Shown here piece by piece: positions 511 through 12,968 of a DNA stretch of 28,278 nucleotides. This stretch comes from a bacterium. GTDB taxonomy: Bacteria > Oederibacteriota > Muellerivitia > Muellerivitales > Muellerivitaceae. Each line of letters starts with the position of its first letter. Positions within the stretch are counted from its first letter, which is position 1. The notes below the pieces were generated by a model. The model was given only the letters and a program-made list of their open reading frames with translations, was not told the origin of the DNA and searched no databases. A program made the position numbers and the translations under genes. The stretch spans positions 1 through 28,278 of the forward strand of contig JAICXI010000001.1 of assembly GCA_025980505.1 (NCBI GenBank), read 5' to 3'.

Positions 511-2580
511 TTAATGAATGGGGACAGGCGTACCACCGCCGGGGATTGGAGAGGATAAAGGTGAGGGCGCGGTACCCTTCCAGGGAATAAAACCGTCGTG
601 GACCAGGCTATGGGCCAGGATCAGGCTGAAGAAAAGGTGGCCTTCGGGGTTGAGGTGGTCGTTGCCCCCAATCTCGGCCAGGGGATAAAAAGAGATGCCC
701 AGGGCCGTTATCTCGTCGTTCAAGTCCAGGAAGGGAATGTGGAACTTCCGGGCCGCATCCACCCAAATCGTCGGGTCTTCCGCGTTGGGCCTGAAGATGC
801 CCGTGTGGGTGGAGCAGAGAAGAAGACGCACAGGTTGGCCGGAAGAGGTTTTCATCGCCGACAATTTGCGGTTCAGGATGTCCAAGGGTTTCCCGTACAT
901 TTCAACCAGCAAGTCGTGAAGCTCGGGCCTGGAGTATAGCGCTTGATTGAAGACGAAGTTGTTGCCTTCGATTTTCACCAGATGGTGTTCCTTGCAAAAG
1001 TCGTAAAACTTCCGCGCCACTCCGTCGGGGATCCTTTGAAGCGGCGGTTTCAACAGGTATTCCATATCGTTGGGATATTTGGGAATGCCTTCGTGCGTCA
1101 TGGGGTTCATGAAGTAGAACTTGAAGGGAAACTCGTCTTCGGGTGTCGGCGGGTCGACGATCAAGACCAAGTCGATATCATCCTTTTGAACGGCGCTCGG
1201 AACCCGGTAGGTCGGCCACAGGAAAAGGGGTTGGGTTGCGGAGGTTCCCGTGTTCATGACCTCGAAGTTCATGGGAGCATCCTCCAGCGCCGCAAGGGCG
1301 TTGAGCTCCGATTCCAACCGCTTGGAATAACGGACCTGGGGCGGGTAATCGCCGAAAGCCTTCACGTTGTAGGAGGTTTGGAAATCATGGCCGACGATCA
1401 TCAAGGATCGGGAATCGCCGACGATCAGGATGCGGAAGGTCCGGGGCGGTTTGGGGGCGGGTGAGTCGATGGCGCCTGCGCCGTCACTTAAATCATAGTT
1501 TCCGGATAAGTCGTGAAATGAAGTCAGCATATTGAAATAAGGGTTGATGATATAAAGCCGCCTCGGCTCCAGGGGATCGGCGACGAATCCGGGAAGGTCC
1601 TCCATGTTCAAATTGCTGAGGGGCAAAAACCAAAGCCCCGGCTGGGGTATCCCATCCCCCCAGACGGTTGTAAAGGAGACGGGATGGTTGTCCGGAAAGA
1701 GCCGTTGGAGGGGAGCCTGGACATCCCTCTGGAGCGCGTAAAGGCAGCCGCCGCTTTGCGCCAAGGCTAAAACGTTGGATCCCGCCGTGACGGCCAGGGA
1801 CGGAGGCGGGGCCGGTCCCGCTCCCGGGGTCCATTTCAACACGAAAACTTTGGGAGTGTCGCGGTCCGACACATACAACTGGTTCCCGGCCGCGCAAAGA
1901 GCGAAGGGATGACCTAAACCATCCTGGGTATTGTTTGGAACCAATATCACTTGGCCTGTCTTCATATCCAATCGCTTTAACGTCATTTGACCGGGTTGGG
2001 TGAAAAAGAGGGAATCGGCTCCGGGCAGGTAGGCCATGTCCCGGATGCCAGCCATGGAAACAGTGTCGGCCAACCCTTCGGCCAAAGTTGTGGGTTTGCT
2101 CCCCGCCAGGGTGGTCACGATTCCGTTTTTCAAGTCGACAAGGCGAAGGAGCTTATTGCCGGTGTCGTTGACCACCAGGCGTTCGCCCGGTAGAAAAACG
2201 ACCCCACTAGGTTGGCCGAAACGGGCTGAGGCCAGGGGACCATCCTGCTTGCCCGGCGCCTCCTGGCCCGTCAACGTGGTCACCCGGTTGTCCTGGTCCA
2301 AGTGGATGACCCGGACCCGGTTGTTGCCCGAATCAGCCACGAAGAGCCGGGTGCCGTCGGAACTGGCGGCCAGGCCGAGGGGTTTATTGAAGTAAGCCGA
2401 AGTGAAACCGCCGTCGCGGAAGCCGGCTGTTCCTTCGCCGGCCACCAGGGCGACGGAAGAGGACACAGGCCGCACAGCTCGGCCTGGCCGGGGGAAGAAA
2501 AAAAAGACTGATAAAAAAACAAAAAAAAACGACTGGGAAAGGCGGTGCCTTTCAAGACTCGTTGAATAATGACGCTTCAT
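511..2580 (-). CDS. Secreted NHL-repeat beta-propeller + C-terminal SGNH-like domain protein (paralog 1)
   Basis: ORF 511-2598; ATG at 2580 preferred but uncertain. Hydrophobic N-terminus; NHL repeats (FNKPLGLAASSDGTRLFVADSGNNRVRVI; FGQPSGVVFLPGERLVVNDTGNKLLRLVD); block I KPPRTFRILIVGDS; C-terminal GNDHLNPEGH. Confidence 0.8.
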   Translation of the reverse strand: MKRHYSTSLERHRLSQSFFFVFLSVFFFFPRPGRAVRPVSSSVALVAGEGTAGFRDGGFTSAYFNKPLGLAASSDGTRLFVADSGNNRVRVIHLDQDNRVTTLTGQEAPGKQDGPLASARFGQPSGVVFLPGERLVVNDTGNKLLRLVDLKNGIVTTLAGSKPTTLAEGLADTVSMAGIRDMAYLPGADSLFFTQPGQMTLKRLDMKTGQVILVPNNTQDGLGHPFALCAAGNQLYVSDRDTPKVFVLKWTPGAGPAPPPSLAVTAGSNVLALAQSGGCLYALQRDVQAPLQRLFPDNHPVSFTTVWGDGIPQPGLWFLPLSNLNMEDLPGFVADPLEPRRLYIINPYFNMLTSFHDLSGNYDLSDGAGAIDSPAPKPPRTFRILIVGDSRSLMIVGHDFQTSYNVKAFGDYPPQVRYSKRLESELNALAALEDAPMNFEVMNTGTSATQPLFLWPTYRVPSAVQKDDIDLVLIVDPPTPEDEFPFKFYFMNPMTHEGIPKYPNDMEYLLKPPLQRIPDGVARKFYDFCKEHHLVKIEGNNFVFNQALYSRPELHDLLVEMYGKPLDILNRKLSAMKTSSGQPVRLLLCSTHTGIFRPNAEDPTIWVDAARKFHIPFLDLNDEITALGISFYPLAEIGGNDHLNPEGHLFFSLILAHSLVHDGFIPWKGTAPSPLSSPIPGGGTPVPIH

Positions 2581-2810
2581 AAAGGCATGGCCTTGCACTG
2601 AGGGTTGATGTCTCTAGGTGAATCCTGGAGAAACAATATTTGGCGAGTTTACCATAACAAACGAAAAGCTTTGAAATAGGACGCCTGGTTTATTTCCGAA
2701 AAGTCATGGGGAGGATAACTCGAACCTCCTTAAAATTCCAAGGCTTCCGAATGAGTTGTGGTAAACTTTGATACATTTTCTAAACCGATCTTACGAAAGT
2801 CGTTTATTTC

Positions 2811-3884
2811 ATGACCTTGACCCGAGACTTCCTGAAGGGGGCCTGCCTCTCCTTTTTCGGCCTCCTGCTATCGGTTGAGATTTTCCTGCGCCTCACCGTC
2901 CCCTCCGGCCTCTGGTACCGCCATTTCGACTTCTCGGGCGACATGACCAGCCGGGCCGAACTGAGGGACCGCCTCCATTACGCCGTTCCGCCCGACCATC
3001 GGGTTCTCCTTTTAGGCGACAGCGTGTTGGGGGCGAGCGCCCTGATGGAACACCGCATTCCCCGGGCCCGGCTCACGACCCTTTCCCGGATTTTACGGGA
3101 AGGGCTCCGGTCGGAAGGTTTCAACGCCTTGAGCCTGGGCTCGGACGGGTTGCTTCTCCCGGACATCGAGGGGCTCACGGCCGAATGGAACGACCCGCAA
3201 CCTGAAAAAATCCTCCTCCTCCTCAATTTCCGAATGTTCTCCAGGGAATTCGCCGAAGGCTTCAAGGCCCTTTCCCGGGACTTCCTTTTAACCGACCTGC
3301 CCGAAGACATCCAAAAAAGACTGGCCCCCGAGACGCCTCCCGGCCAGGAAGCCCGCTTGAGCGACGGCCTGTACCAGGGAATGTGCGACCATTGGGTCCT
3401 TTTCCGGGAAACCCAGGCGGCCAAAACCCTCTGGTATTACCCGAGCCAGAAGGATTTCTTCCAGCGGCTGCTGGAGGGGGTTGTGGGACGCAATGACATG
3501 GAAGCGGACATCCTCGAGGCGGCCTTGAAACAAAAGGTGGCCCCCTATTACCAGGCCTACTCCTGGGATCCCGATGCCTTGCCGCTGACCTGCCTCAAAA
3601 GGATCCTGGATCTTTGGAGCCGGGCCCGCCTGCCGGTGACGGTCGTCTTGACGCCCCAAAACGAGCGGTTCTTGGGGAGCTATCTGGACAAGCCCAGCTT
3701 TCAAAAAAACCGGAAGACTTTGTCGTCCTTCCTGAAGACATACACCCGCCGGGGAATGGTTTACAAAGATTGGTCGGGGAAATACCCCTCTTCCTTTTTC
3801 CTCGACCACTGCCACTTGACGCCCGAGGGCAACCGGCGATATGCCGCGGACCTCCAAGTTCTCTTGGAAGGGAAAGGGCGATGA
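2811..3884 (+). CDS. SGNH-fold acyltransferase/esterase, DltD/AlgJ/PatB-like, N-terminal membrane anchor
   Basis: N-terminal TM (CLSFFGLLLSVEIFL), block I LLGDS and block V FLDHCHL (DxxH) give an intact Ser-Asp-His triad. Coupled to the next genes by ATGA and TAAATG junctions. Confidence 0.8.
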   Translation: MTLTRDFLKGACLSFFGLLLSVEIFLRLTVPSGLWYRHFDFSGDMTSRAELRDRLHYAVPPDHRVLLLGDSVLGASALMEHRIPRARLTTLSRILREGLRSEGFNALSLGSDGLLLPDIEGLTAEWNDPQPEKILLLLNFRMFSREFAEGFKALSRDFLLTDLPEDIQKRLAPETPPGQEARLSDGLYQGMCDHWVLFRETQAAKTLWYYPSQKDFFQRLLEGVVGRNDMEADILEAALKQKVAPYYQAYSWDPDALPLTCLKRILDLWSRARLPVTVVLTPQNERFLGSYLDKPSFQKNRKTLSSFLKTYTRRGMVYKDWSGKYPSSFFLDHCHLTPEGNRRYAADLQVLLEGKGR

Positions 3885-4003
3885 CCCCCGGTGATTTCTG
3901 GAAAGGTTTCGGGATCGGGGTGGTTTTATTCGCCTTGTTCCTTGCCATCCTCCTTTTTTCCGGCGACCTTTCGGCTTCCAAATTCATTTATGTGGATTTT
4001 TAA
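3881..4003 (+). CDS. DltX-like 40-aa membrane peptide with C-terminal FIYxxF acyl-shuttle motif
   Basis: MTPGDFWKGFGIGVVLFALFLAILLFSGDLSASKFIYVDF*. ATG overlaps the upstream TGA, and its TAA abuts the MBOAT ATG. One TM helix; C-terminus matches the DltX-type FIY-x-x-F. Confidence 0.85.
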   Translation: MTPGDFWKGFGIGVVLFALFLAILLFSGDLSASKFIYVDF

Positions 4004-5212
4004 ATGATCTTCAACACCAGCTGGTTCCTTCTCTTTTTCCTCCTCTTTTATTTCTTCCTGTGGCTCATGCCGACGGCCAAGATCCGGTTTTTTTATGCCT
4101 TGGCTTGCAGCGCGGTGTTCCATTACCATTTCGCCGGACCCGCCGGGGTGAAACCCATCATCGTCATGGCGGTCATCACTTTCCTGCTGGCGCTTTGGAT
4201 CGCCCGTTGTCCGGCGGGCGGGCCCCGGAAAAAGTGGGTTTATGGGCTGGCCCTGCTGGTCCCGGTCTCAGGCCTTTTGTTTTACAAATACCGGGCGCTC
4301 TTGTTGGGCTCCCTCGGTTCCCTGGTGGGCGGCGGGGCGGGTAACTGGCTTTCCGCCCACGCCATCCAGCCCGCCATGCCACTGGCCATTTCCTTCTTCA
4401 CCTTCGAGTTCGTGCATTACCTGACGGACGTCTACCACGGCCACGGCGAGCCCGTCCGCAATCCCTTCAAATTCGGCATTTTCTGCATCTTTTTTCCCTC
4501 CATCGTTTCGGGTCCCATCAAGCGGTTCCAACCCTTCCTGGCCCAACTGGAGGAAGGGCTCCGGCGGCCCCCGTTGGAAAAAGCCCTTTTGGGGCTGGCC
4601 CAGGTACTGCTGGGTTTTTTCAAGAAGCTGGTCATCGCCGACAACGCCACGATGACCATCCACCTCCTGGAAAAACGCACGGACCTGACCTCCGGCCCGA
4701 TCTGCCTTTTGATGGCGCTTCTTTCCATCCGGATCCTGTTCGACTTCAGCGGTTATTCGGACATCGCCATCGGCCTGGGCAAGATGATCGGACTCGATCT
4801 GCCGCGGAATTTCAACTTCCCCTACATTTCCAGGAACATCACTGAGTTTTGGCGCCGCTGGCACATGTCGTTGAGCAGCTGGATCCGCGACTACATTTAC
4901 ATCCCCATGGGCGGGAACCGTTATGGAACGGCGCGGAAATTCATGAACCTGATGGTGACCATGTTCGTGTGCGGGCTTTGGCACGGCGCCAGCTGGCACT
5001 TCGGCGTGTGGGGCGTTTACCACGGGGTGGCCCTGGCCGGGCATAACCTGTGGGAAAGATCCGGCCTGGGCCAAAAGTGGGCTTCCCTCCCTTTCAGCCG
5101 GTGGGTGGATGTGGCCGTGACCAACGTTTTCGTGGCTTATGGATGGTTTTTATTTTTTTACCCCCTGGACCAAGTGGCGAAATTTACCGGCCGCCTTTTC
5201 CTATTTCACTAA
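4004..5212 (+). CDS. MBOAT family O-acyltransferase (AlgI/DltB/PatA family)
   Basis: Polytopic; PLAISFFTF, FDFSGYSDIAIG, NFNFPY, EFWRRWHMSLSSWIRDYIYIPMGG, GLWHGA (catalytic His). Confidence 0.95.
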   Translation: MIFNTSWFLLFFLLFYFFLWLMPTAKIRFFYALACSAVFHYHFAGPAGVKPIIVMAVITFLLALWIARCPAGGPRKKWVYGLALLVPVSGLLFYKYRALLLGSLGSLVGGGAGNWLSAHAIQPAMPLAISFFTFEFVHYLTDVYHGHGEPVRNPFKFGIFCIFFPSIVSGPIKRFQPFLAQLEEGLRRPPLEKALLGLAQVLLGFFKKLVIADNATMTIHLLEKRTDLTSGPICLLMALLSIRILFDFSGYSDIAIGLGKMIGLDLPRNFNFPYISRNITEFWRRWHMSLSSWIRDYIYIPMGGNRYGTARKFMNLMVTMFVCGLWHGASWHFGVWGVYHGVALAGHNLWERSGLGQKWASLPFSRWVDVAVTNVFVAYGWFLFFYPLDQVAKFTGRLFLFH

Positions 5213-5226
5213 GCAAGGACTGATCG

Positions 5227-7224
5227 GTGGGATTGATTCGTTTTTCCTTTTCAACCCGGTTCCGGGCCCGGTCGTTGCGCCTCATGGCGGCGGGGATGGC
5301 TTTTCTCCCGGGTCCGCCTTCCTTCGCCTTGACGCCCATGGAGTATTACAACAGCCTTGTGGCGGGAGGCGACGACGCCGGCTTCCGGGACGGGGAGTTT
5401 TACCGGGCGCGGTTCTCCCATCCTTCGGGGCTCGGCCTGGACGGCCCGGGCGATAGAATGTTCGTCGCGGACCGGGACAACCACCGCATCCGTGTGGTTT
5501 ATTTGAACCGGGACAACCGCGTGGAGACGCTGGCGGGGACGGGAACCGCGGGCCGGGAGGATGGGCCGGTTTCCAAAGCCACCTTCAACCAGCCCTCGGC
5601 CCTGGCCTTTATTCCCCCGGACCAATTGGCGGTGTTCGACGCGGGGGACAGGCTGTTGAGGGTGGTCGACCTTCGGGCCGGGAGGGTGTGGACCGTTCCC
5701 CTTGGACCCTTGGGTGGGGTTTGGAACTTGGTTTACGCCCCGCGGGAAGGAAGCCTTTATTTTTCGGAGCCCGCCGAGGGTCTTCTCCAACGGTTGGATT
5801 GGAAGACACAAAAAGTAACGACGGTTTTAAGCGCGAATCCCCAACTGCCCCATCCCCAGGCCCTTTGCCTCCACCAAGACCGGCTTTATGCGGCGGACCG
5901 GGATTTACCCGCGGTTTACCGCATCGATCGCGACGCTTCGTCCCCGCCGGGGAAAGCCGCCGTGAACTGGGTGGAAGTGGGGAAGGGGGACCATATCCAG
6001 GAACTGGCGGGTTCGGTGAGTTTCCTGTACGCCCTCCAGGCCGGCCCCATCCCCCTGGCGCGGATTTTGCCGGAGTCCCGGGCTGTGAGCTTGGCAACAC
6101 CCTGGGGATTCCCGGTGGATAACCAGAATCCGGGGACCGAGCCGCTCTTGAAGTTTGACGGAGGCGCCCCCGTGGGGTTCGCCGCGTCGCCGAACCAGGA
6201 AAGGAAACTTTTTATCTCCTGTCCGGGAGCCGGCCTGCAGGACATCATCAGCGTCAAGGATTACGATTTCGACAAGTGGTGGAAATCCTATTCCCGGTAT
6301 GGGGAACCCACTCCCTTAACCTACCTCACGGATTTTGAATATCCGGCCGCCAAACCCCCCCGGACCTTCCGTATCTTGTTGGTGGGTGAATCCCGCGTCC
6401 TTACGGCGCCCGCCCTGGTGCCGGGGGCGAGCCCTTCCGGCTTCAACGAGCTCCACTGGACCCAGGATACGCTGAGGACGGACACCTTTCCGAAAAAGCT
6501 GGAACTGGGGTTGAACACCGAGGCGTCCCTCCGGGATGGCCCGGTTCATTTTGAGGTTTTGGTCCTTTCCCGCCACGGGTTGGCACCCGGCGCTTACCTT
6601 TATGACGAAGTCCCGCTCTTCGTGAAGCGTTACGACATCGACCTGGTACTCGTGCTGGCGGGAAAAGCGGGATACGAGGATTATTTTGAAAAACCCATCC
6701 GACCGGAGGGTATTCCGGCCCACGATTTGGACCCCGCCTACCTGCTGAAGGCCCTCCCGGCCCGTATCCCGCCCGGAACCCCCGCCCGGTTTTACGGGCT
6801 TTGCCGGCAAAAGGGATTCTTGAAGGATGGCGCGGGATTCCCTTTTTGGTGGGAAATTCTCGATAAGGGGGATGGGGAAATCCGCCGGGACCTGATGGAA
6901 ATGACGGCCAGGCCCCTGCGGCTTTTCGCGGAACGATTGAAGTCCATGAGAACCTCCACCGGCTCCGTACCCCGGTTGGCGTTCTTTTACGTCCCTTGGC
7001 GGGATTGGGGTCCCCAGGACAAATGCGAAGCTTTTTGGGACGACCTTTGCCGGGAAAACCACCTGGGCATGCTGGACTTGAGCGATTCCTTCAACGCGTT
7101 GAAGACGGGTTTTTATCCCATCAACCAGCCCAACTGCATGCGCCACTATACGGCCGAGGGGGGGAATGTGTTGATCGCCCGGATTTTAGGTTACTATTTG
7201 ATGAAGCAAGGGTGGGTTCCCTAG
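5227..7224 (+). CDS. Secreted NHL-repeat + SGNH-like domain protein (paralog 2)
   Basis: Signal-like N-terminus ending SFA|LTPM (start codon uncertain); NHL repeats (FSHPSGLGLDGPGDRMFVADRDNHRIRVV); KPPRTFRILLVGES; C-terminal MRHYTAEGG. Confidence 0.8.
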   Translation: MGLIRFSFSTRFRARSLRLMAAGMAFLPGPPSFALTPMEYYNSLVAGGDDAGFRDGEFYRARFSHPSGLGLDGPGDRMFVADRDNHRIRVVYLNRDNRVETLAGTGTAGREDGPVSKATFNQPSALAFIPPDQLAVFDAGDRLLRVVDLRAGRVWTVPLGPLGGVWNLVYAPREGSLYFSEPAEGLLQRLDWKTQKVTTVLSANPQLPHPQALCLHQDRLYAADRDLPAVYRIDRDASSPPGKAAVNWVEVGKGDHIQELAGSVSFLYALQAGPIPLARILPESRAVSLATPWGFPVDNQNPGTEPLLKFDGGAPVGFAASPNQERKLFISCPGAGLQDIISVKDYDFDKWWKSYSRYGEPTPLTYLTDFEYPAAKPPRTFRILLVGESRVLTAPALVPGASPSGFNELHWTQDTLRTDTFPKKLELGLNTEASLRDGPVHFEVLVLSRHGLAPGAYLYDEVPLFVKRYDIDLVLVLAGKAGYEDYFEKPIRPEGIPAHDLDPAYLLKALPARIPPGTPARFYGLCRQKGFLKDGAGFPFWWEILDKGDGEIRRDLMEMTARPLRLFAERLKSMRTSTGSVPRLAFFYVPWRDWGPQDKCEAFWDDLCRENHLGMLDLSDSFNALKTGFYPINQPNCMRHYTAEGGNVLIARILGYYLMKQGWVP

Positions 7225-7286
7225 GAAACCTATCCAAGCTGCGGATCGTCGGAAGAGTATATCGGTTCATTTTAAGGAGGCGCTCA

Positions 7287-7805
7287 TTGAAGAAACTATT
7301 ATTGGTGATGGGGATGTTTTTGACTTCAGTACCCATCTTCGCCCAAGAGACCCCTGCGGCGTCGACTTACTTGGCGGCTCCCACGCCGGCCGCCAGCCCC
7401 CTGTCCCGGGTCATTCCAAAATGGAGCATGTCGGCGGTGCCTTGGGACGCATGGTTCAAGGACAACGCCATGGTCACGGACAAGACCGACTATGTCCATT
7501 TCTTCTGGAATGCCCAGGACTTCAAGGCCAACTTCGAGGTGAAGGAGAAAAAGAAGAGACTGGCGGAGGCCGCCCTTCAACTGGTGTCGCGTCTTTACCC
7601 GTCGGATGCCAAGGCCGACTTAGTGAAGGTGGATATCGTGTATGTCCTGGAAAGGGATGTCTATGGCCAACCCAAGTGGGACAGCCTCCAACAAGTGGCC
7701 CACTTGGAATTCTTGCGGTCCAAGGACTCCAAGCTAGCTAAAACCAAAAAGGAACCCTCCGACGAAGCGCTCCAAAAAGCTTTTGACAAGTTCGATTTAT
7801 TTTAA
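7287..7805 (+). CDS. Secreted hypothetical protein, 172 aa
   Basis: TTG start at 7287 after AAGGAGG (7274-7280); signal peptide MKKLLLVMGMFLTSVPIFA|QE; Ala/Pro linker. Stop overlaps the next ATG (TAATG). The 6996 start in the ORF track overlaps the upstream gene and is rejected. Confidence 0.8.
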   Translation: MKKLLLVMGMFLTSVPIFAQETPAASTYLAAPTPAASPLSRVIPKWSMSAVPWDAWFKDNAMVTDKTDYVHFFWNAQDFKANFEVKEKKKRLAEAALQLVSRLYPSDAKADLVKVDIVYVLERDVYGQPKWDSLQQVAHLEFLRSKDSKLAKTKKEPSDEALQKAFDKFDLF

Positions 7806-9772
7806 TGAAAATTATTTTATTTTTAATCCTGATTTGGTTTCCGACGATGAGCTGCTGGGCGCTGTCGCCCATGCAAAGCTTCCAGGACTTGGTGGCGGGT
7901 GAAGGAACCGATGGATTGAAAGATGGGCCTTTTTATTCGGCACTTTTTCATTCACCCACGGGATTGGCTCTTAATTCCAACGGAAGCAAGTTATATGTCG
8001 CCGATCGGGAAAACAACTGCATCCGGGTTGTAGACCTGGCCGCAGGAAACTATGTTTCCACTTTAACGGGCTGTCTTGAGGCGGGCTATTTGGATGGGCC
8101 CCTTTCCAAGGCACGGTGGAATGGACCCATTGGGTTGATTTACCTGCCGGGTGACCGCTTGGTGGTCAATGATACGGGCAACAAGAGGATCCGAGAGATC
8201 GATTTGCAGGAAAAAACGGTTCAAACGTTGGCTGGAAACGGTCAAACAGGACTCCAAGATGGAAAGGGTCTTCAAAATCCGTTGGGGCCCATTTGGAGCA
8301 TGGCTTACCTTCCCGCCCAAGATTCGGTTTATTTCACCCAGCCAGATTTTAAGGCACTCCGGCGGTTGAAATTGGGAAGCGGGGAAGTTTCGACTGTCTT
8401 TTCGGAGGAGCCACGGCTTCCCCGTCCCACGGCCCTTTTTGTCATGGACGAAAAAATCTATATCGCCGAAGGCGATGAGGGGCAGGTTTACGAACTCATT
8501 CCCCATGACAAGGTTGAAAAAATCGACGCGAGTGCTTTTGATTGGGTGTCTCTGGGAAAGGGCGGGAAGATATTGTGCCTTGCGGGTTCGGACGGGACTT
8601 TGTACGCCTTGCGTACCGATGAGCATTTCCCTTTGGTTCGGTTTTCACCTCAAGCAACTCCGGTGGGCCTTTTGACCGTTTGGGGGGGCCCAATCCAAGA
8701 TTCACTCTCCGGGACTTTCTTTAAGGATGTTTTATCCCCTTCGCCCATGGCCATGGTTGTCGATCCCCGTACGCCGCACAAATTTTATATCGCCCACCCT
8801 CTTTTAAATATTGTGACTTCTTTCCGTGACCTGTGTTTGACCGAACGGGGTGGACTTTGGAATTTAAACAAGGGAGGGCTTACCGACTTTGATTACCCTT
8901 TTTCAAAACCGCCGGGGGTATACCGTATTCTTCTGGTGGGCGATTCCCACATCATGACAATTGCGGGACAAGGACCAACGCTCTCCGTTTTCAAGGCGAA
9001 TATGGAGACGCTGGCCAAAAGGATGGAGCTGATGCTTAATACCCTCGCGGCCATGGAAGACCTACCAACCCGTTTTGAGGTGCTGACGGATGGGAGAGTT
9101 GCCGGCGAAGTCTTAAATCTGTGGCCCTATTATTCCGTTCCTGCGATCGCACAGAAGTACGATATTGACACAGTGCTTTTTTGTTTGACGCCTAACTACA
9201 CCGATTACGTGTATTTTCTCAGGCCTTTAACGAAGGAAGGTATTCCTTCCGAAAAGGACGACCCTGAATATATTTTAAAGCCGATCCAGGATAGGATTCC
9301 GGAAGGATTGCCGCGCCGATTTATCGAACTTTGTCAGGCAAAAAATTTGGTATCTATTGAGGGAAACCAATTTCATTTCTCTCCATTGGCGGATCTGGTT
9401 CAAGATTCCCAAATAAGAAAGTGTATGGTCGATCTCTATAGCCGCCCCTTGAAGTTACTGAAGGAAAAACTGGCTTCTCAAAAGACATCCGGCGGACATG
9501 CCGGAAATTTGGATATCTGTTTGATACCTTGGGCAAAATTTTACCCTTTTGAAAAGGAAAAACCCTTTTGGGAAGACGTACTCAAGGAAGTCGGAGGACC
9601 CTCCACGGATCTTTCCGACCTTTTGACGGCCTTTCGTGTTAGTTTTTATCCTCTTTCGGAGATAGATGGGAACGATCATTACACCGCCGAAGGACAGGGG
9701 CTGATTGCTTTTGTGTTGACCCAGGAATTGATTCGCCAGAAACTCTTTCCTTTTTCATCCTCTCAAAAATGA
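7805..9772 (+). CDS. Secreted NHL-repeat + SGNH-like domain protein (paralog 3)
   Basis: Signal peptide MKIILFLILIWFPTMSCWA|LSPM; NHL repeats (FHSPTGLALNSNGSKLYVADRENNCIRVVD); KPPGVYRILLVGDS; GNDHYTAEG. Confidence 0.85.
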   Translation: MKIILFLILIWFPTMSCWALSPMQSFQDLVAGEGTDGLKDGPFYSALFHSPTGLALNSNGSKLYVADRENNCIRVVDLAAGNYVSTLTGCLEAGYLDGPLSKARWNGPIGLIYLPGDRLVVNDTGNKRIREIDLQEKTVQTLAGNGQTGLQDGKGLQNPLGPIWSMAYLPAQDSVYFTQPDFKALRRLKLGSGEVSTVFSEEPRLPRPTALFVMDEKIYIAEGDEGQVYELIPHDKVEKIDASAFDWVSLGKGGKILCLAGSDGTLYALRTDEHFPLVRFSPQATPVGLLTVWGGPIQDSLSGTFFKDVLSPSPMAMVVDPRTPHKFYIAHPLLNIVTSFRDLCLTERGGLWNLNKGGLTDFDYPFSKPPGVYRILLVGDSHIMTIAGQGPTLSVFKANMETLAKRMELMLNTLAAMEDLPTRFEVLTDGRVAGEVLNLWPYYSVPAIAQKYDIDTVLFCLTPNYTDYVYFLRPLTKEGIPSEKDDPEYILKPIQDRIPEGLPRRFIELCQAKNLVSIEGNQFHFSPLADLVQDSQIRKCMVDLYSRPLKLLKEKLASQKTSGGHAGNLDICLIPWAKFYPFEKEKPFWEDVLKEVGGPSTDLSDLLTAFRVSFYPLSEIDGNDHYTAEGQGLIAFVLTQELIRQKLFPFSSSQK

Positions 9773-9775
9773 TTT

Positions 9776-9823
9776 CCTTCCGCAGAACTCCAAAAAATTT
9801 TTGACAAGTTTGATATTTTCTGA
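9776..9823 (+). pseudogene. Relic second copy of the 3' end of the 172-aa gene
   Basis: Reads PSAELQKIFDKFDIF* versus PSDEALQKAFDKFDLF* of the 7287-7805 gene; 9789-9823 vs 7771-7805 match at 28/35 nt by manual alignment. Confidence 0.75.
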
Positions 9824-9982
9824 AGGTTAAATCTTTAAATTTCCCTACAAATGAGGCTATTTTCCAGGTTATTTAATTAGGAAATCGGTATCCTTTTGAA
9901 TACAATCTCCACCTAGCCGGTCGAGTTGCTTTATTGCCCTATCAATGACCCGCCCGAATTGATTCATCCCAAGGAGATTGAT

Positions 9983-11287
9983 ATGAAATTTAGAATTTTA
10001 GGAGTAATCCTCCTCCTGGCCGGGTCTTCCATTCTGATGATCGGTTGCCCCGGCAGCAGTCCCAGTTCCCCCGCAGCCCCCACGGCGACGCCCACCTTCA
10101 CGAACACGGTCTGCATGAACGCCAGCGGCACGCCTTGTACTTCCACGCCGACTTTCACCTTCACGGATACGGCCACGGCCACGGATACGGTGACGGATAC
10201 GGCCACGGGCACGCCGACCCATACGGCTACCGCCACTTATACCCGGACGGAAACGGGTACGCCGACGGATACGGCGACATCCACGGCGACCGGTACGCCG
10301 ACGAACACGGCGACCGTAACCGACACCCCCACGGTCACCCCTACTCCAACCGATACCTTAAGCCCCACGCCGACGGGCTCCGATACGCCCACTTTTACGG
10401 CCACCTCCACGGTCACTTTCACCCCAACGCGGACGGCCACGGACACCGCCACAGCCACCAACACGGTCTTCTCATGCGCGTCCACCGATACCTTCACCCC
10501 GACGCCTTCCGGCGGCAATTCCATTTCCGTGACCGTGCACGTGACGGGCGGGACGATCAACGCTTCCCATCCTGTTTTTGTCCATGTGGACAACACCTCC
10601 CTGGGAAGCCCGACGACCTCGTTTGAGGGAAACGCGAACATCCTATCCAATAACGGCGTCAATAAGTTCACCGGAATTCCGTCGGGTAGTGACGCCAGCT
10701 GCATTGTGGCGGCTTTCTTTGACCCCGCCAATGCGATCAACCCTTATAAGGCCGATCATGGCGGCGACATCAATGTGGGGGGGTATTTTGTGGGCTGGAA
10801 CGGGTCCTCCACCGGCACCTGCAGTTTCGGTTCCCTGACGGCGGTCACCGCTTCCAGCAGCGCGGGAGTGTCCCTTTACCTTGGAACCACTTGCGTGGTA
10901 AACGGCTTAAGCGGCGCCTTGTCCTACACCGGGAGCGGAACGGTGGATAACTGCCGGTCGATCGTTGTGCAGATTTCCACCGGCGGACCCTCTTTTTCGA
11001 ACTTCAACGCCGGGATGGTGACCAATGGGATTAGCACGCCTTTCGCCACTACCTCCGGCAATTCCCAAAGGTATGACATCATTCCCAATAACCAGTACAT
11101 CGGGGGAGGGGACCCAACGTCTTATTACATCAGGGCCTATTATGATTCCAACGCGACCGGAGGTTGGTCCAACCCGCCTTCCGCGGGGGAGCCTTGCAAA
11201 CAGTTGACGGGGACCTTTACCACCTCCAGCGCGCAACAAGCGGGGTTAAACATCACCTTCAGCGATACGGATAGTTGCGGTAATTAA
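9983..11287 (+). CDS. Lipoprotein with Thr-rich (TxT/TPT) stalk and Cys-containing beta-rich C-terminal region (paralog A)
   Basis: AAGGAG at 9971-9976 and ATG at 9983; lipobox-like ILMIG|C22; long Thr-alternating tract; Gly/Ser/Thr/Asn-rich C-terminal region. Confidence 0.85.
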
Positions 11288-11741: not shown

Positions 11742-12968
11742 ATGAAAGTTCGCTTGTTTGGAGCCTTTTCACTTCTCGCTTTTGCCTCCATCCTGGTCAC
11801 CGGCTGTCCCGGCAACAGTCCCACTTCCCCGGCGGCACCCACCGCCACCTTCACCTTTACCGATACGCCCTGCATGAATGCCGGCGGCACGCCCTGCACC
11901 TCCACGCCAACCTTCACGGACACGGATACGGCCACGGACACGGCCACCGGCACGCCGACCAGCACCGGGACCAGCACCTATACCAGGACCTTCACCTTTA
12001 CGGCCACCGATACGGCCACCGCCACTTCCACGGGGACGCCGACCAGTACGCCCACGGTTACCGATACCCCGACCATCACGGATACGCCGACCGAGACCTT
12101 GAGCCCCACCCCGACGGGTTCGGATACGGCGACCTTCACGCGAACCAGCACGCCTTCGTCGACACCAACCAAAACATCAACCAATACACCTGTCGTGCCG
12201 ACCAACACGGCTACCCTGTGTCCCACCCAAAGCTTCACGCCGACCCCCCTTGCTAACGGCTATTCCATCTCGGGAAGCGTCGGTTTTTCGGGAACTGGGG
12301 TGAACGGATCCCACCCCCTCCAAGTCGTGGCTTTTGATACGAATGGAAACAATGGAAACCCCTACGACCTGGTGACCACCAACAACAGTTCCTATACAAT
12401 CCAGGGACTTTCGGCGGGCGCCACTTATATGGTTGTGGCCTTCTTCAACCCCTCCGTCACCGGGTTTAGCTGGCCCCCGGCGCTGGGCAGCTATGCCGCG
12501 ATGTATGGGACCTCCTCCTGCACCGTCAGCCTTGCGTCGCCCATCATCGTGAGCGGTGCCATGACCAGCAAGAACGTCACGATTGGGACCGCCAATCTCA
12601 TCAACGGTTACGGCGGGACCGCCAGTTACAGCGGAAGCTTGGGACGCGTGGATGGGTGCCATGGAATCATCGTCGAGCTTTTCCCGACCGGCACGACGCT
12701 TTACGGCGCTTCCAACAGCGTTACGGCCGTCAGCAGCAACAACGACGCCTATGTGCAAACCAACGGAGGGAGTTTCACCCTGGTGGGGGGCAAGGGCGGC
12801 GGTAACGCCTGCGCCGGCCAAACGGTGAACATCCTGGCCTACTATAACGCGGGGACAGGGGGCTGTTGCGGCATCCAGTCCGGCGACCCCTATGTGTTCC
12901 TGCAAAACCAGGCTTCCGGCACCTCGCCGAGCCTCACGATCAGCCTGACGGATTCCCAAACTTATTGA
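11742..12968 (+). CDS. Lipoprotein with Thr-rich stalk (paralog B)
   Basis: AAGGAG RBS; ILVTG|C22; same [16 protein letters not shown]...CMNAxGTPC N-terminus as paralog A; divergent C-terminal region. Confidence 0.85.
   Translation: MKVRLFGAFSLLAFASILVTGCPGNSPTSPAAPTATFTFTDTPCMNAGGTPCTSTPTFTDTDTATDTATGTPTSTGTSTYTRTFTFTATDTATATSTGTPTSTPTVTDTPTITDTPTETLSPTPTGSDTATFTRTSTPSSTPTKTSTNTPVVPTNTATLCPTQSFTPTPLANGYSISGSVGFSGTGVNGSHPLQVVAFDTNGNNGNPYDLVTTNNSSYTIQGLSAGATYMVVAFFNPSVTGFSWPPALGSYAAMYGTSSCTVSLASPIIVSGAMTSKNVTIGTANLINGYGGTASYSGSLGRVDGCHGIIVELFPTGTTLYGASNSVTAVSSNNDAYVQTNGGSFTLVGGKGGGNACAGQTVNILAYYNAGTGGCCGIQSGDPYVFLQNQASGTSPSLTISLTDSQTY

Follow-up and report, generated by a model that had tools for sequence, protein, structure and literature searches.

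NHL-propeller/SGNH-fold proteins as candidate third components of MBOAT acyl-relay modules in the Muellerivitaceae

We analyzed a 28,278-nt stretch of DNA from a member of the Muellerivitaceae (Oederibacteriota), referred to here as the window (positions 1–28,278 of the forward strand of contig JAICXI010000001.1, assembly GCA_025980505.1), which carries three genes whose products join an N-terminal NHL propeller to a C-terminal SGNH-fold domain. These NHL-SGNH proteins belong to a family in which the Ser nucleophile and the His of SGNH enzymes are nearly invariant while the canonical acid is mostly absent, and their genes recur beside modules encoding an MBOAT protein, a DltD-like SGNH protein, and a microprotein with an acyl-shuttle motif. 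The NHL-SGNH proteins probably act on a cell-envelope polymer, either acylating or deacylating it. Our favored reading, to which we assign a probability of about 0.4, is that they are acceptor-specific terminal transferases and constitute a third component, of SGNH type, of MBOAT acyl-relay modules.

Architecture and fold of the NHL-SGNH proteins

The three genes and the positions of their sequence motifs are as follows.

511–2598, minus strand: NHL-SGNH paralog 1, 695 aa as listed with a likely start at Met7, divergent from the DltD-like gene; block I GDS with Ser396 (codon 1411–1413), block V GGNDH with His648 (codon 655–657)
5227–7224, plus strand: NHL-SGNH paralog 2, 665 aa, starting 14 nt past the MBOAT stop and belonging to the MBOAT-proximal clade; block I GES with Ser389 (codon 6391–6393), block V NCMRH with His640 (codon 7144–7146)
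7805–9772, plus strand: NHL-SGNH paralog 3, 655 aa, with a signal peptide (residues 1–~20), a propeller (~27–341), and an SGNH-fold domain (~365–650); block I GDS with Ser381 (codon 8945–8947), block V DGNDH with His625 (codon 9677–9679)

The three open reading frames (ORFs) are real and paralogous, being 36–40% identical over ~650 residues, far beyond chance, with a mean column identity of 59% in the alignment. Motifs that an earlier note had read from the DNA were recovered as quoted. These include LVAG (residues 51, 44, and 29 in the products of the 511, 5227, and 7805 genes, respectively), the KPPxxxRIL[IL]VG[DE]S string that ends in the block I Ser, and the three block V strings, none of which has Asp three residues before the His (His-3), where Gly, Cys, and Gly are found instead. 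The Ser lies ~245 residues ahead of the His. The "C-terminal" His of the note is present in all three proteins, but it is located 26–48 residues before the terminus. An N-terminal hydrophobic leader is found in each paralog; the signal peptide that had been proposed for all three is clear for 7805–9772 (helix 2–14 in the model) and plausible for 511–2598, but weak for 5227–7224. The listed GTG starts of the 511–2598 and 5227–7224 genes are probably a few codons early, and the corresponding database records are 688 and 654 aa long.

The NHL repeats reported for these proteins are represented in Pfam by a single repeat each (E = 1.6e-10, 4e-6, and 4.3e-9), and it is structural modeling and Foldseek comparison that instead reveal a six-bladed propeller. 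In a full-length model of the 7805 protein (pLDDT 91.1, pTM 0.89), residues 27–341 form ~24 strands, and this part matches the six-bladed NHL domains of teneurin, SOQ1, NHLRC2, Pizza6, and TRIM71 with Foldseek E values of 7e-18 to 1e-11. NHL-propeller/SGNH fusion, the term used in the earlier note, is therefore a correct description. The pTM of the predicted full-length structure further implies that the two domains are held in a fixed mutual arrangement.

For the C-terminal domain (C-domain), an AlphaFold model of residues 352–655 of the 7805 protein was built from a 58-sequence family alignment. The model has a pLDDT of 92.4, a pTM of 0.92, and alternating strands and helices, in keeping with the three-layer α/β/α fold around a five-stranded parallel sheet that typifies the SGNH/GDSL superfamily, and the first 29 Foldseek hits in the PDB are all SGNH/GDSL proteins (probability 0.77–1.00), bearing out the fold that had been proposed from motifs. 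Neisseria gonorrhoeae PatB ranks first (E = 4e-5), and GDSL lipases, Axe2, a CE2 esterase, and the S. scabies esterase come next. TM-scores are moderate, at 0.37–0.47 when normalized to the query and up to 0.67 when normalized to the target, and the low query-normalized values are attributable to a ~100-residue insertion between strands 3 and 4. In the full-length model, the Ser comes immediately after strand 1 (residues 372–380) and the His lies just ahead of the last long helix, as in canonical SGNH proteins.

Sequence comparisons do not place this domain in a described family. Neither Pfam nor NCBIfam returned anything in the C-terminal 300 residues of the three window proteins, and no Pfam SGNH family (Lipase_GDSL, Lipase_GDSL_2, DltD, DUF1574, or ALGX) hit any of them above its gathering score. 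When 58 C-domains were scanned singly against Pfam at E values up to 5, only two gave weak Lipase_GDSL_2 hits. A family profile found only non-significant matches among PDB sequences; the only weak one covering blocks I and V is Ape1 (4k3u, E = 1.8), with the Ser and His in register with those two blocks. BLASTP of the C-domain against the neighboring DltD-like protein gave short motif matches only. With hhalign, the C-domain family aligned to the DltD-like family over 247 columns (E = 2.8e-4, probability 41%), with Ser and His in register and with the long insertion between strands 3 and 4 common to both. The same comparison with the 338-aa SGNH partners of a second, 531-aa MBOAT type (described below) showed no relationship (probability 0.3%), and for this reason the link between the C-domain and the DltD-like family is best taken as a weak one. 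Overall, the C-domain is an SGNH-fold, putatively catalytic domain that lacks an existing classification or Pfam model.

Retention of Ser and His and loss of the canonical acid

We tabulated residues over 169 unique full C-domains. Of these, 164 have Ser as nucleophile and the other 5 have Cys; His is found in 165, and 165 domains have both Ser/Cys and His. Similar conservation is seen for the block I Gly (166/169) and for a Gly at His+5 (164/169), and the residue before the nucleophile is D in 114/169 and otherwise R, N, S, T, or E. The canonical acid position, His-3, is occupied by Asp or Glu in 29 domains, by Gly in 68, and by Cys in 27; acidic residues occur at His-1 in 67 and at His-6 in 118. 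The aligned block II column is variable (G 68, A 38, S 27, T 13), and no column after strand 3 that could correspond to the block III Asn has more than 22 Asn, with any Asn in that loop found in 73 domains. The 5227 protein combines GES in block I with the absence of any acidic residue from His-6 to His-1.

The pattern noted earlier for three proteins, in which Ser and His are kept and the canonical acid is absent, thus holds across the family. Because an acid is found at His-3 in so few domains and no Asn column exists, the alignment indicates that acid loss is a family trait and not decay or a quirk of the three window genes. By the same criterion, the nucleophile and base appear to be under strong constraint, and the canonical Asp and Asn appear to have been dispensed with. 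The equivalence of this Ser and His to the catalytic residues of SGNH enzymes is predicted from topological position and profile register. We considered the invariant Asp of the DIDLVL strand as a substitute acid and rejected it, as it sits at the N-terminal end of strand 3, on a side of the sheet that would face away from the active site. An Asp of this type ("pDlvv") is common in SGNH families at the N-terminal end of strand 3.

These counts bear on whether the proteins are catalysts at all or noncatalytic binding proteins (pseudoenzymes) that lost activity along with the Asp and Asn. The scarcity of the canonical acid, the missing Asn column, and the doubly altered motifs of the 5227 protein would all fit such a loss. 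However, a Ser or Cys nucleophile in every domain and a His in nearly every domain have been maintained at an overall identity of only ~35%, the Ser-to-Cys swaps keep a nucleophile, and active SGNH enzymes with a Ser-His dyad exist (PMC9487903). We consider a pseudoenzyme role very improbable. The arrangement we propose is that each NHL-SGNH protein would be a secreted, catalytically competent acyl-enzyme catalyst that uses Ser as nucleophile and His as base in the absence of a block V Asp or block III Asn, with the six-bladed propeller, rigidly held against the SGNH-fold domain, presumably serving as the substrate binder.

Linkage to MBOAT modules and division into clades

The 5227 gene follows a set of genes that reproduces the DltD/DltX/DltB trio. 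The neighboring features are listed here.

2811–3884, plus strand: membrane-anchored DltD/DUF1574-like SGNH protein, 357 aa, with canonical GDS and DHCH (DxxH) motifs
3881–4003, plus strand: 40-aa microprotein with a single transmembrane (TM) segment and a C-terminal FIYVDF, an FxYxxF acyl-shuttle motif; DltX-like
4004–5212, plus strand: MBOAT of DltB size, 402 aa, Pfam MBOAT E = 6e-27, lacking a C-terminal FxYxxF of its own
7290–7805, plus strand: small secreted protein, ~171 aa, lacking a Pfam family; ORF in the 6996–7805 frame

The 2811 protein reads LLLGDS ... LDHCH, and the intact DHCH that had been ascribed to it is indeed present. In a protein atlas, its neighbors are DltD, DUF1574, and LB_356 clusters; searches of Pfam (at threshold) and of PDB sequences gave no hit. 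Its single-copy ortholog adjoins a 400-aa MBOAT in 20 of the 31 genomes of the taxonomic family, and we presume that it is the cognate SGNH partner of the MBOAT. The MBOAT itself scores 192 bits against the NCBIfam DltB model, below the cut-off of 375. The microprotein ORF shares an ATGA overlap with the upstream stop and a TAAATG junction with the MBOAT start, and a FIYVDF microprotein lies between the DltD-like gene and the MBOAT in 18/18 related loci, with an identical C-terminal stretch. In DltX, the Tyr of FxYxxF carries the acyl group, and the MBOAT PatA carries the motif in its own chain; non-Dlt MBOAT pathways have been stated to lack a DltX-like microprotein (PMC12148441).

DltC was not found, and DltA was not found above the NCBIfam cut-off, either in the window's own genome (65% complete) or in four 99%-complete relatives used for comparison (G046, G050, G054, and G070). 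The donor is therefore more likely to be an acyl-CoA than D-alanyl-DltC, and despite its DltB-like MBOAT and DltX-like peptide, the system is probably not a D-alanylation pathway. The lineage is uncultured, and three of the related genomes are public metagenome-assembled genomes labelled Candidatus Firestonebacteria or candidate division FCPU426.

Of 18 DltD-like/microprotein/MBOAT modules, 12 have an NHL-SGNH gene as their immediate neighbor, and this adjacency spans many genera. The order that recurs in relatives is DltD-like SGNH protein, 40-aa FIYVDF microprotein, MBOAT, NHL-SGNH protein, and small secreted protein. Homologs of the last of these are found in 20/20 related loci, beside either the MBOAT or the first NHL-SGNH gene. 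The 5227 gene sits between the MBOAT and the small secreted protein, and in other loci the gene for the latter directly follows the MBOAT. The small secreted protein has no Pfam hit, nor could any similarity to AlgF be detected, although its position and size mark it as an AlgF analogue. Across the taxonomic family, NHL-SGNH and MBOAT genes occur together in 23 genomes, NHL-SGNH alone in one, MBOAT alone in none, and neither in seven, although the relatedness of these genomes means that the counts overstate independence.

A second MBOAT type, of 531–533 aa and with the shuttle motif fused to its end as FLYFRF, also occurs in relatives. Next in order come an anchored 338–350-aa DUF1574/DltD-like SGNH protein (GDS, DYAH) and then an NHL-SGNH protein of a G-T-S type. 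Five such modules were located:

L089:9662–12287, second-MBOAT module; in this locus both module types occur in one gene string
L102:8844–11474, second-MBOAT module
L103:2146–4771, second-MBOAT module
L104:4337–6964, second-MBOAT module
L105:5770–8429, second-MBOAT module

The C-domain family comprises 227 representative clusters at 50% identity, almost all of them 620–710-aa proteins with the domain at the C-terminus. NHL-SGNH matches were found in 23 of the 30 other genomes of the taxonomic family, with 1–14 per genome and often in tandem; beyond this family, within the phylum, matches were only weak. A pattern search for related loci that used the full-length alignment was dominated by NHL patterns, such that true relatives made up 3 of 80 loci and the rest were mostly generic NHL proteins. 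The window's own genome encodes a fourth paralog (locus L087, contig C212, 1361–3829, minus strand) with GSS and ...EPGYGQH motifs and no acid at His-3.

A maximum-likelihood tree of 30 NHL-SGNH copies from module loci separates the window paralogs. The 511 and 7805 genes fall together in one clade with 99% support, within which the 511 gene and orthologs from three further genomes, of other genera, form a subclade with 100% support. The 5227 gene is in a separate clade of 13 (100% support) that contains all six genes located directly downstream of a 400-aa MBOAT. Most members of this clade have a block V of the form [Q/E/D]-x-C-C-x-x-H-[YF]-T-x-Y-G, and NCMRH of the 5227 protein is accordingly best read, from the alignment, as a variant of a conserved subtype and not as random drift. 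A further subgroup, with G-T-S and a shortened loop (PV-Y-x-D-H), is found beside the second MBOAT type. The suggestion of sub-functionalization among the paralogs fits the tree, with its old and separate clades, and gains support from this conserved block V subtype.

The 7805–9772 gene differs from its surroundings. Its GC content is 0.44–0.53 versus ~0.60 in neighboring genes, and it is bracketed by 39-nt direct repeats (7763–7801 and 9781–9819; 79% identical, 2018 nt apart), the first copy of which forms the 3′ end of the gene for the small secreted protein. The low GC and flanking repeats suggest a cassette-like insertion or replacement. Separately, several genomes have Thr-rich ORFs (at least 20 Thr in 60 residues), none with a Pfam family, close to the modules. 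Their positions are given below, and the encoded proteins are possibly acceptors or mere neighbors.

Window 9926–11287: Thr-rich ORF
Window 11742–12968: Thr-rich ORF
L095:6200–8197: Thr-rich ORF
L097:8349–10777: Thr-rich ORF
L099:9786–11033: Thr-rich ORF
L105:1039–2490: Thr-rich ORF

The large and variable copy number, the tandem arrays, the unrelated neighbors of several homologs, and the resemblance of the 7805–9772 gene to a mobile or recent cassette could all point to secreted esterases or lipases that act on external substrates, whether as nutrients or in attack on other cells, with proximity to the MBOAT reflecting history and not function. Such a role is hard to reconcile with an adjacency to two MBOAT module types that has been kept across many genera, with the absence of any genome in the taxonomic family that has the MBOAT and lacks NHL-SGNH (and a single one with the converse), or with the grouping of the MBOAT-proximal genes in a distinct, well-supported clade. 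We regard it as unlikely.

Terminal transfer or de-O-acylation

In the favored reading, the MBOAT would load an acyl group, probably acetyl or another group derived from acyl-CoA since no DltA or DltC was found, onto the Tyr of the FxYxxF shuttle, which here is a separate 40-aa microprotein. The anchored DltD-like SGNH protein, with its full triad, would next accept the acyl group, and the NHL-SGNH protein would then carry out final transfer to the acceptor, analogous to AlgX in the AlgI/AlgJ/AlgF/AlgX system. The paralog clades may serve different MBOAT modules or different acceptors. The tight embedding of the proximal clade in the operon and the weak similarity of the C-domain to the DltD-like fold argue for transfer.

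The alginate system of P. aeruginosa offers a parallel in composition: like the modules described here, it combines an MBOAT with an anchored SGNH-like protein, a small protein of the periplasm, and a periplasmic SGNH-like protein with a substrate-binding domain. AlgX is the proposed terminal transferase of alginate acetylation (PMC4148444). The two systems differ in that AlgX and AlgJ have the triad order D-x-H ... S and keep the Asp, whereas the NHL-SGNH order is S ... H with the Asp missing; in that the binding domain of AlgX is a C-terminal CBM instead of an N-terminal NHL propeller; and in that the alginate shuttle Tyr is on the MBOAT and not on a separate microprotein.

PatB (PDB 7TJB), the best structural match to the C-domain, is likewise the SGNH partner of an MBOAT (PatA) that uses an FxYxxF acyl-Tyr shuttle, and NgPatA ends in FIYANF where the microprotein ends in FIYVDF (PMC12148441). 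The match is distant (TM 0.38 query-normalized and 0.49 target-normalized, 12% identity), and PatB has no propeller. It has instead a Ser-His-Asp triad, a block III Asn, an N-terminal TM anchor, two β-hairpin "wings", and a hydrophobic residue before the His. Comparison with DltD gives a similar picture: the C-domain and the local DltD-like family align along their whole length, but the profile match is weak (41%), there is no Pfam DltD hit and no DxxH, and the NHL-SGNH proteins lack a TM anchor and have a signal peptide and propeller, unlike DltD.

Several observations weigh against terminal transfer. The characterized SGNH transferases PatB and AlgJ/AlgX keep a full Ser-His-Asp triad (PMC12148441, PMC4148444), and the SGNH enzymes known to lack the Asp, namely CE2, the S. 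scabies esterase, and NanS, are esterases (PMC9487903). The earlier idea that the altered motifs reduce hydrolysis and so favor transfer finds no support in these precedents. In PatB and OatA, water is described as being excluded by a Ser/Asn turn in block II and by hydrophobic residues that include one before the His (PMC12148441); such features are not evident here, where window paralogs 1, 2, and 3 have Asp, Arg, and Asp, respectively, just ahead of the His. Terminal transfer might also be the task of the anchored DltD-like protein alone. Finally, the genomes underlying the co-occurrence counts are related to one another, many paralogs (up to 14 matches per genome) lie far from any MBOAT, and three homologs on long contigs have no MBOAT within 10 kb. 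These three homologs had first suggested that there is no MBOAT linkage, a conclusion overturned by the systematic scan of the taxonomic family.

Much of this evidence would also suit de-O-acylases, that is, editing esterases that strip acyl groups laid by the MBOAT/DltD-like pair and use the propeller as a polymer binder. Analogues would be Ape1, which accompanies PatA/PatB; DltE, which occurs in some dlt operons; and CE2 enzymes with their appended binding domain. Every known SGNH family without a block V Asp is hydrolytic (PMC9487903), CE2 (2w9x) and 1esc are among the Foldseek hits, and Ape1 is the only weak PDB sequence match to cover blocks I and V. The polar or charged residue before the His and the variable block II are unlike the water-excluding sites of PatB and OatA, and the DltD-like partner already has the canonical triad expected of a transferase. 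Set against this, genes of the proximal clade sit tightly within the operon, flanked by the MBOAT gene and that of a further core component, which suggests that their products belong to the machinery and do not oppose it; as many as 14 copies in one genome are a large number for the editing of a self-made polymer; and the weak profile link with its shared long insertion is to a transferase-like family. We judge editing esterase activity to be a serious possibility, though one at less than even odds.

The individual esterases resemble the NHL-SGNH proteins in part. Ape1 (PDB 4K3U) is an SGNH protein with an appended substrate-binding domain whose gene lies beside an MBOAT/SGNH transferase pair, patA/patB, and its non-significant profile match to the C-domain (E = 1.8) covers RIL.IGDSH in block I and H[FY]...G in block V. 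It differs in keeping the catalytic Asp and in having an accessory β-sandwich inserted within the SGNH domain (PMC9487903). CE2 enzymes (CtCE2 and CjCE2B, 2W9X) and the S. scabies esterase (1ESC) provide the precedent for the active site, as they are Ser-His dyads without a block V acid in which the His is oriented by a main-chain carbonyl, and CE2 shares the layout of an N-terminal binding domain followed by SGNH (PMC9487903). The CE2 accessory domain is, however, a β-sandwich and not a propeller, and these enzymes are carbohydrate-degrading and have no MBOAT gene link, unlike the NHL-SGNH proteins.

Returning to terminal transfer, a more specific version of this reading would make the NHL-SGNH proteins a new class of Ser-His-only terminal acyltransferases, fed by a DltX-type microprotein/MBOAT relay that operates without DltA or DltC. 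Clades with distinct block I and block V signatures would then act on different propeller-bound acceptors, one of which might be the neighboring Thr-rich lipoproteins, in a form of protein O-acylation. We consider this full combination doubtful.

Precedents exist for the SGNH fold, for an active site of the dyad type, and for the logic of MBOAT-SGNH pairs. New here are the joining of a propeller to an SGNH domain, a motif set reduced twice over (neither Asp nor Asn), the expansion specific to this lineage, and the repeated occurrence as a third component, and the literature searched contained no mention of NHL repeats together with SGNH or MBOAT. MBOAT-SGNH pairs are the general bacterial route to the acylation of envelope polymers. 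The acyl-Tyr shuttle mechanism was established only recently (PMC12148441), and to it this locus adds a split shuttle peptide, with no DltA or DltC found, and an expanded propeller-SGNH family as a recurrent extra component. If the NHL-SGNH proteins are terminal transferases, the SGNH scaffold would be able to perform transfer without Asp or Asn, and a single relay could supply multiple enzymes, each specific to its acceptor. An esterase role would instead extend the pattern seen in PatA/PatB/Ape1, in which a transferase is accompanied by an editing esterase. In either case, they make up a defined and testable family of ~227 clusters at 50% identity whose C-domain has no Pfam model.

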